The notes under the pieces: generated by a model
Databases searched by the model: none
What the model was told of the DNA's origin: nothing
The model's input: the letters and a program-made list of their open reading frames with translations, nothing else
Program-made: the position numbers and the translations under genes
Source: a virus
Lineage: Duplodnaviria > Heunggongvirae > Uroviricota > Caudoviricetes
Direction: 5' to 3' (one strand)
Length of the DNA stretch: 16,521 bases
IMG/VR virus record: IMGVR_UViG_2740892014_000012
In this document: positions 14,598-15,011 of the stretch, piece by piece
How the letters are laid out: each line of letters opens with the position of its first letter
Position numbering within the stretch: position 1 is the stretch's first letter

Positions 14598-14984
14598 GTT
14601 TTACATGCCTTGACTTATCGGATGAAATTCTCTTACTAAATTTAACGGCAGTTTAATAGCCGTACAACTCGTGGTAGCCAGGGAAATATCCCAGTCGTGG
14701 TTAAGGTTGTACTTGACGGCTATTATTTCAACAATGCTTAAAGTGAGAGCTTAAGGTTATGCGTATGTTTTACAGTCCGAGTAGATTCTGACCAATAGCT
14801 TCTTTGTATAATTCTGTCAGAAATAAATCTTGGCTTGCATGAAGTTTGAGACCTTATCTTGTTTGATTATGAATAATCAATTCGCCATAATTGTATCACC
14901 GGAGCCTGAACAACTCCGGTGACTTCTGCGCTAAACGGGGACGTTTATGCGCACACACAATCCAAACTCTCTTCTCCCTTCACA

Positions 14985-15011
14985 GATGCAGAAATGCACC
15001 TGCGTTTTTTT
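14985..15011 (+). terminator. Candidate weak intrinsic terminator upstream of ninB (tR2-like position)
   Basis: Short imperfect stem (UGCAG..CUGCG) followed by a T7 run (15005..15011). The stem is weak, so this is tentative. Confidence 0.3.

Follow-up and report, generated by a model that had tools for sequence, protein, structure and literature searches.

In phage lambda, the terminator tR2 lies between ren and ninB, 20 nt before the ribosome-binding site (RBS) of ninB. It consists of a canonical GC stem and U-run, and has no promoter, no leader open reading frame (ORF) and no further hairpins. Here we analyse the DNA that occupies the same place in a stretch of 16,521 nt (IMG/VR record IMGVR_UViG_2740892014_000012; the whole stretch is referred to as the window, and all positions are those of the window), the context of which is a lambdoid prophage adjoining icd in ST131-type E. 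coli. In contrast to tR2, this locus combines a probable promoter, four RNA hairpins (here named H1 to H4) and a short leader ORF, orf33. Like tR2, it has a hairpin followed by an RNA 3' end, which has been seen in K-12 for H1. There is no sequence or structural similarity to lambda tR2, and homology between the two was rejected.

Parts of the locus also resemble other described systems. The nut (boxA/boxB) RNAs and the put RNAs of HK022 and HK639 are promoter-proximal hairpins of lambdoid early operons in which the loop is conserved, and H1 and H2 likewise are two adjacent stem-loops of ~57 nt. Stem-loops of the ompA type, found at the 5' end, start at approximately the same place as H1, namely at the predicted transcription start (+1). 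Leaders in which an ORF is coupled to the gene downstream, or which are sensitive to Rho, share with this locus the overlap of stop and start codons (AUGA or GUGA), a downstream Shine-Dalgarno (SD) sequence and start codon held in a hairpin (here H4), an unconstrained peptide and an ORF that is rich in C and poor in G. Unlike these systems, the locus has no evident sensing step for an amino acid, ion or ligand, and no covarying terminator/antiterminator pairing.

The element of phage 82 is 92% identical over 14862-15044 (GenBank X92588, Mahdi et al. 1996). In window coordinates, that record annotates a putative -35 (14863-14868), a putative -10 (14886-14891), a repeat described as a 'possible regulator-binding site' (14895-14923, which is H1), an RBS, orf33 (14947-15048) and orf151, which is ninB. 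In the K-12 prophage DLP12, ylcH (b4588) is annotated directly before ybcN. The phage 82 and K-12 records thus present a putative promoter, a DNA operator and a small protein gene. The interpretation given here differs, in that the repeat belongs to a set of four RNA hairpins that covary, the loop of H2 is the 'RBS', and the peptide is without purifying selection. Although old annotations already show the element, it has no entry in Rfam, and apparently nobody has described it as a structured RNA.

The features of the locus are as follows.

14598-15044: 447-bp gap between the BD-FAE alpha/beta hydrolase gene and ninB/ybcN.
14862: left edge of the conserved module, where megablast and blastn matches start (query position 265).
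14862-15048: conserved module, consisting of promoter, H1, H2, spacer, H3 and H4.
14863-14891, plus strand: sigma-70 promoter-like element TTGATT-17-CATAAT, from a promoter scan and the phage 82 annotation (X92588), with -35 TTGATT at 14863-14868, a 17-nt spacer, -10 CATAAT at 14886-14891 and a predicted +1 at about A14898, within the 5' arm of H1.
14863-14880: perfect 8-bp palindrome TTGATTAT/ATAATCAA, overlapping the -35 and the spacer, lineage-specific.
14893-15047, plus strand: leader RNA of roughly 155 bases, putatively cis-acting, with four hairpins.
14896-14904/14914-14922, plus strand: H1, a perfect 9-bp stem TCACCGGAG/CTCCGGTGA with a 9-nt loop CCUGAACAA that has a conserved UGARC core.
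Between H1 and H2, plus strand: linker CUUCU.
14928-14937/14942-14952, plus strand: H2, GCGC+UAAACG / CGUUUA(U)GCGC, with U14948 bulged and the loop GGGA at 14938-14941.
14947-15048, plus strand: orf33, a ylcH homologue of 33 codons (RefSeq; phage 82; K-12 b4588).
14953-14984, plus strand: unstructured, C-rich spacer free of G (32 nt, 14 C, 0 G).
14983-14990/14995-15002, plus strand: H3, CAG-A-UGCA / UGCA-C-CUG, with a GAAA tetraloop and a conserved A14986·C14999 mismatch.
15019-15024/15041-15046, plus strand: outer stem of H4, with the inner stem ACCUC/GAGGU at 15026-15030/15035-15039.
15045-15500, plus strand: ninB (ybcN in RefSeq), encoding a YbcN-type Orf-family protein (Pfam NinB), the first gene of the nin-Q operon.

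That the leader is a plus-strand RNA with four hairpins is very secure. Regions upstream of ninB were collected, with ninB as anchor, from genomes, from viral contigs (using four different NinB queries) and from annotated phages. A covariance model was made from 24 gapless E. coli-type sequences with the four helices specified. It gives exactly one match per locus in all 97 of 97 sources, on the plus strand and directly before ninB, and no second match in the window. The alignment consists of 95 distinct rows, referred to below as the relatives. By eye, the stems of all four hairpins are seen to be swapped for different complementary sequences in relatives, with the loops unchanged. Over the 95 rows, 96.8% of the pair cells are paired, and double-sided changes are found at 33 of the 37 pairs. 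The compensatory cells number 643, as against 193.5±9.6 when columns are shuffled (0 of 500 shuffles reach the observed value) and 17-60 when the partners are slid by 1-3 columns.

Because the alignment was fitted to the model, three further checks were applied: RNAalifold, minimum free energy (MFE) folds of single sequences, and an all-against-all scan of the columns. Unaided, RNAalifold recovers H1, H2, H3 and the outer stem of H4, with a compensatory change in 28 of the 30 pairs it predicts. The MFE folds, which use no alignment, contain H1 in 79/95 sequences and H4 in 90/95, and the column scan yields no other covarying helix, either as an alternative or as a pseudoknot. The whole leader folds with -54.3 kcal/mol (z = -4.32). 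G·U pairs are frequent in the stems. Read from the opposite strand, or taken as part of a DNA palindrome, each of them would be an A·C mismatch, and the clear conclusion is that the element is a plus-strand RNA.

H1 had been picked out in a sequence-only reading of the window that placed it in a promoter-hairpin-terminator unit at 14784-15011. Its standing as a functional element of the plus-strand RNA is supported by compensatory changes, which keep the stem across related prophages. The hairpin has an energy of -15.0 kcal/mol (z = -4.24; 0 of 200 shuffles are as stable). Apart from the invariant G-C that closes the loop, all 9 pairs show double-sided changes, and single-sequence folds of the 95 relatives give 49 distinct stem sequences. 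The UGARC core of the loop is kept in more than 90 of the 95 leaders. About 79 G·U cells in H1 fit a plus-strand RNA only, and there are 27 U·G at one H1 pair. With 9-10 bp, the stem is stable and GC-rich, as expected of an intrinsic terminator. A search for additional H1-like hairpins in the window gave only candidates at chance level. In two viral contigs, L334 (216-401) and L191 (286-401), H2 is missing and extra sequence contains a second H1-like hairpin, GUCAUAGAU-GAGAACAU-AUCUAUGAC, which indicates that an H1-type hairpin can be duplicated.

All 10 pairs of H2 (-14.4 kcal/mol, z = -5.29) have double-sided changes, and its loop is GGGA in 91/95 relatives. The sequence GGGGA is the SD sequence of orf33, and the AUG of orf33 (14947-14949) lies in the 3' arm. 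The same hairpin is annotated in phi80 as the inverted repeat 'IR4'. It is speculation that the GGGA loop might be a site for CsrA. A boxA-like reading of the 5' arm was rejected, since the arm covaries freely and hence is not a conserved boxA. The spacer between H2 and H3 is 35% C and 8% G across relatives, and from its composition 14953-14984, which lies within the leader ORF, is a candidate for a rut-like stretch on which Rho could load. In H3, all 7 pairs have double-sided changes and 99.5% of the cells are paired; the loop is GAAA in 64/95 relatives, and in Klebsiella phages the hairpin is CCGAUGGC-GAAR-GCCACCGG. H4 encloses the ninB SD sequence GGAGG together with the first two bases of the GUG start. 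It has 11 pairs, 8 of them with double-sided changes, and 97.8% of its cells are paired; the hairpin is kept in three sequence types, and 52 sequences have U·G at one of its pairs.

The left edge of the module is sharp. Phage 82, phi80, HK639, HK225 and K-12 DLP12 have in common an abrupt start of homology at 14862 (megablast, blastn), and Enterobacter and Klebsiella phages likewise match only from 14862 onward. The module is present in 2823 of 5426 complete E. coli genomes, as against 682 of 5426 for the segment 14598-14861. The whole gap is near-identical in ~680 genomes, and more than 2100 further genomes match from 14862 onward only. The segment 14598-14861 is found only together with inverse-autotransporter/hydrolase cargo genes (682 genomes), and the upstream neighbours of the leader differ in nearly every lineage, the junction being the edge of the -35. 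These comparisons show that the -35 edge of the module is the exact point at which cargo genes (morons) are inserted. The leader is portable, being found before both YbcN-type and lambda-type NinB proteins, which are mutually only 19% identical. In Pantoea (L011, L012, L014) and Rosenbergiella (L015), there is no leader in the 260 nt upstream of the YbcN-type ninB (62-65% identity), and upstream coding sequence extends right up to ninB; the module is thus not obligatory for ninB.

Besides the hairpin, the sequence-only reading had drawn in three more motifs: a TATAAT at 14807-14812 as a -10 element, a 27-codon ORF (MKFETLSCLIMNNQFAIIVSPEPEQLR; ATG 14839, stop 14920-14922) and a weak terminator at 14985-15011. 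All are present in the sequence, but it is the hairpin at 14896-14922 that exceeds chance, both in energy and in covariation; the other three are chance features or not conserved. The TATAAT has a -35 matching TTGACA in at most 1-2 of 6 positions at a spacing of 16-18 nt, is unreported by the promoter scan, lies in cargo-specific DNA and reads TATGAT in the close relatives L031 and L046. The ORF, which has no Pfam match, crosses the breakpoint at 14862, with its first eight codons on the cargo side, and is therefore absent from relatives with a different upstream segment. Since the TATAAT and the start of the ORF lie beyond the junction and are unconserved, both were rejected as chance features. 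The T-run of the terminator is broken in most relatives (in K-12, for example, it reads CAATTCTTTG), and the element lies inside orf33/ylcH and overlaps H3, the hairpin that covariation favours over these bases. An alternative inverted repeat that goes with this T-run, AGAUGCAGAAA/UUUUUGCAUCU (14984-15017, plus strand), is mutually exclusive with H3 and poorly conserved, relatives retaining just 4 of its pairs with 1 double change. In the K-12 Term-seq tables searched, there is no RNA 3' end in the 5724xx range that would correspond to 14985-15011. An Rfam scan gave no match at gathering thresholds and, at permissive thresholds, only two chance-level matches (E ~5). A free-standing small RNA gene spanning 14784-15011 is thus not what is there. 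The suggestion of a regulatory leader for the nin operon at the position equivalent to tR2 fared better: lambda tR2 occupies the matching site.

The promoter that belongs to the module is a different one. TTGATT-17-CATAAT matches TTGACA/TATAAT at 9/12 positions and directly abuts H1. When 91 distinct upstream sequences were searched for their best sigma-70 match no more than 45 nt from H1, 96.7% reached 8/12 or higher, as against 2.1% of control windows, which were taken from the same loci. A 17-nt spacer is found in 83/91 relatives, and the -10 ends 4 nt before the first H1 pair in 54/91 (range 0-7). Column conservation peaks at TTG (-35 to -33; 87-97%) and at ATAAT (-11 to -7; 92-100%), with spacer positions at 31-80%, and other lineages have different promoter-like hexamers instead, such as TTGCTT/GATAAT or an extended -10, TGnTATAAT. 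Hexamers that are kept while the spacer drifts, and that are swapped for other promoter-like hexamers, are the signature of a selected promoter, and from this pattern of conservation 14863-14891 is probably a genuine sigma-70 promoter. The palindrome at 14863-14880 is found as TTGAT-N8-ATCAA in 40/91 distinct promoters, with an A/T swap between the window and K-12 that is apparently compensated. It could serve as a binding site for a protein or, where transcripts read through from upstream, fold as an RNA hairpin. An FNR-like site (TTGAT...ATCAA) was rejected, the spacing being N8 rather than N4 and the sequence occurring in only 40/91 promoters.

For H1, there is evidence in vivo. Published Term-seq data for K-12 list plus-strand RNA 3' ends at 572349 and 572350, 19 nt before the start of ylcH (Adams et al. 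2021, PMC7815308, supplementary files 1 and 3). They are classed as 'orphan' or 'upstream ORF', with the flanking sequences ...CUCCGGUGACUUCUG and ...GUCACCGGAGCCUGAACAACUCCGGUGACUUCUG (PMC7815308). These positions correspond to 14928/14929 in the window, that is, 5-6 nt past H1 and before H2, and the H1 hairpin of K-12 is identical to that of the window. Supplementary file 1 has the two positions in separate parts, and the row in file 3 is without the Rho columns that only the LB 0.4 tab has; the ends would thus seem to have been detected in two conditions other than LB at an optical density of 0.4. As the end precedes the equally stable H2, termination or a cut in the linker accounts for it more readily than an exonuclease trimming the RNA from downstream.

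The geometry of orf33 is also conserved. Its stop codon UGA overlaps the GUG start of ninB (GUGA), and 89/95 relatives have an ORF of 30-34 codons whose start lies in the 3' arm of H2 and whose stop reaches 1 nt into the start codon of ninB, with the overlap AUGA or GUGA. These fall into five length classes, and since the geometry is kept across all five, the indels are in-frame. In 27 shared genomes, the ratio of nonsynonymous to synonymous polymorphism (pN/pS) is 1.03 for orf33 and 0.18 for ninB, and the peptide is therefore not what selection sees. It has no Pfam family. Two apparent amino acid changes in L009, Q->L and C->S, are in fact the two halves of one base-pair swap in H3. The published ribosome-profiling supplements examined have no entry for the locus. 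In HK639 (L099, 1532-1684), ninB starts with GUGG in place of GUGA, and the orf33 frame runs on through it; in one row of the alignment the leader ORF stops 7 nt past the ninB start, and that row is probably the HK639 locus. The geometry of orf33 plausibly fits a coupling ORF, in which ribosomes would open H4 and hand over to ninB.

We hypothesise that the module, standing in the position of lambda tR2, is a leader that acts in cis on the nin operon, both as an attenuator and by translational coupling, and consider this reading probable, though well short of certain. Entry to the nin-Q operon would thus be gated in two layers. In the first layer, H1 would act as a promoter-proximal, weak, U-poor terminator or 3'-end-forming hairpin, which would halt or truncate transcripts both from the promoter of the module (leaving an RNA of ~31 nt) and from genes upstream. 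It would thus insulate ninB...Q from unmodified RNA polymerase, as lambda tR2 does, and polymerase modified for antitermination would read through it. In the second layer, RNA that continues past H1 would give NinB only if the leader ORF is translated. Ribosomes would have to open H2, in which the AUG is hidden, and on terminating at GUGA would unwind H4 and restart on ninB. If orf33 were left untranslated, its G-free, C-rich body would be a plausible entry site for Rho.

Several points weigh against this interpretation. H1 is without a U-tract: the 8 nt past the stem contain a mean of 2.4 U in the 95 relatives, and read CUUCUGCG in the window. If H1 terminates transcription, it is therefore a weak, non-canonical terminator. 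Its loop is 9 nt long, and it is not among the terminators reported by the scan. The covarying outer pairs of H1 are upstream of the predicted +1 in many variants, so that only transcripts reading through from upstream would form the full stem. Few Term-seq reads support the end (~1.6-1.9 thousand), and the K-12 3' end could equally be a product of processing or decay. The published Cappable-seq and small RNA (sRNA) sequencing supplements examined have no transcription start site entry for the promoter. The pair counts come from an alignment fitted to a model, which biases them toward structure, and in the G-poor stretch of orf33 other frames are likewise open in 33-58 of the 95 relatives. Finally, the conserved loop of H1 is explained by neither a terminator nor a stabiliser role, and the precise role of H1 is uncertain.

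The conserved loop is the starting point for a different view of H1. A constant loop on varied stems is typical of protein-binding hairpins such as boxB, and UGARC is kept across the 49 stems of a hairpin that follows directly after the promoter. H1 might then be a hairpin that a specific protein, or RNA polymerase itself, recognises, either as a nut/boxB-like or put-like antitermination loader or as the operator of a translational repressor, with UGARC as the contact surface and the stem merely presenting it. In the prophage, the minus strand at 5144-5654, between a kil-like gene (4853-5143) and cI (5655-6410), contains no ORF of 40 or more amino acids, and annotation of 5100-5660 yielded nothing informative; lambda carries N between kil and cI. 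The prophage seems to lack an N-type antiterminator gene, and with no N-like ORF between kil and cI it must use another antitermination route, which may be RNA-based and put-like or of another kind. Against a recognition hairpin, and unlike nut and put sites, H1 has a 9-nt loop rather than a GNRA-like pentaloop, there is no boxA (CGCUCUUA) in 14800-15050, and the element is single-copy, both in the 16.5-kb window and in 32 kb of prophage. Nut and put sites come paired, behind pL and pR, which is not where H1 lies. The covariance model matches nothing in the pL-pR region of HK022 (24000-34000, E up to 10), and the phages that carry the module, phage 82 and HK639 among them, differ in their antitermination systems. 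We regard a recognition role as unlikely, although not negligibly so.

A bolder possibility, to which we give only an outside chance, is that H1 with its UGARC loop, displayed at the very start of the transcript, licenses read-through into ninB...Q by recruiting a factor of the host or phage or by acting on RNA polymerase itself, as a third antitermination entry besides nut and put, or else that the ~31-nt promoter-proximal K-12 RNA is a tiny trans-acting product of resident prophages. If true, either would add to the regulatory RNAs of lambdoid phages a new class, which about half of all complete E. coli genomes would carry.

Alternatively, H1 could be a 5'-terminal stem-loop that stabilises the messenger RNA made from the promoter of the module, as in ompA, in which case the K-12 3' end would be what decay leaves behind, namely the 5' hairpin, protected from degradation after the RNA is cut in the linker between H1 and H2. 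The distance from the -10 to H1 is near-constant, which puts the predicted +1 at or just inside the stem and leaves no unpaired 5' tail, and the short RNA does end in the single-stranded linker. A stabiliser, however, has no need of a conserved loop, and the covarying outermost pairs that lie upstream of the predicted +1 in many variants also fit it poorly; in both respects, and in having a 3' end right after the hairpin, H1 is unlike the ompA type. We consider this explanation distinctly unlikely.

The phage 82 record takes the inverted repeat as a DNA operator, which would mean that a dimeric regulator bound at +1 to +27 represses the promoter. The repeat is indeed a perfect palindrome over the predicted start site, and genes downstream in K-12, such as rusA, have been described as poorly expressed (PMC12844172). 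Nevertheless, the arms vary and the centre is conserved, which is the opposite of an operator, and the many plus-strand G·U pairs would be A·C mismatches in a DNA palindrome. Moreover, H2-H4 show the same RNA-type covariation, and no cognate regulator travels with the module, its upstream neighbours being different in every lineage. A DNA operator is thus very unlikely. As for the unit of the sequence-only reading exactly as drawn, a small RNA or small-protein gene transcribed from the TATAAT at 14807 with the hairpin and 14985-15011 as terminators, it is almost certainly wrong, even though its four motifs all exist: the TATAAT and ATG are on the cargo side of the recombination junction, the TATAAT lacks a workable -35, goes unreported in the promoter scan and is altered in close relatives, the 27-codon ORF is missing from every other lineage, and the T-run is unconserved.

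Two published regulators were considered and rejected. HusR (YnfL) binds near rusA (PMC12844172), where its peak is upstream of rusA and thus elsewhere, and the HusR box is unlike H1. The Pas sRNAs of pathogenic E. coli are absent from K-12 and located in late regions, and are unrelated.

The cargo that adjoins the leader in the window is a block at 9252-14597, between the replication gene P and the ninB leader, with its right end abutting the -35 of the leader promoter. It contains a 1421-residue inverse autotransporter (IAT_beta and Ig-like domains) and, convergent with it, the BD-FAE/alpha-beta hydrolase, and is found in 682/5426 E. coli genomes. Its features in the window are as follows.

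10561-11623: tandem repeat of 357 bp in the inverse autotransporter gene, 3.0 copies, 98% identical.
13554-14597, minus strand: alpha/beta (BD-FAE) hydrolase gene.
14786-14792/14816-14822: 7-bp inverted repeat TTCTGAC/GTCAGAA, flanking the TATAAT at 14807 in cargo-specific DNA upstream of the hydrolase gene.

The module stands at the gate to the Q antiterminator, and hence to lysis and, in Shiga toxin (Stx) phages, to toxin expression. Its carriers include phages 82, phi80, HK639 and HK225, the K-12 prophage DLP12 and the 2823 E. coli genomes noted above, in which it has long been annotated as a 'hypothetical protein' (ylcH/orf33) and an unexplained inverted repeat. An RNA leader with a coupling ORF would explain why ylcH behaves as an unconstrained peptide. 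The leader is a candidate for a new Rfam family, and its four hairpins would provide lambdoid phages with an alternative to tR2 for throttling early transcription and translation before Q.

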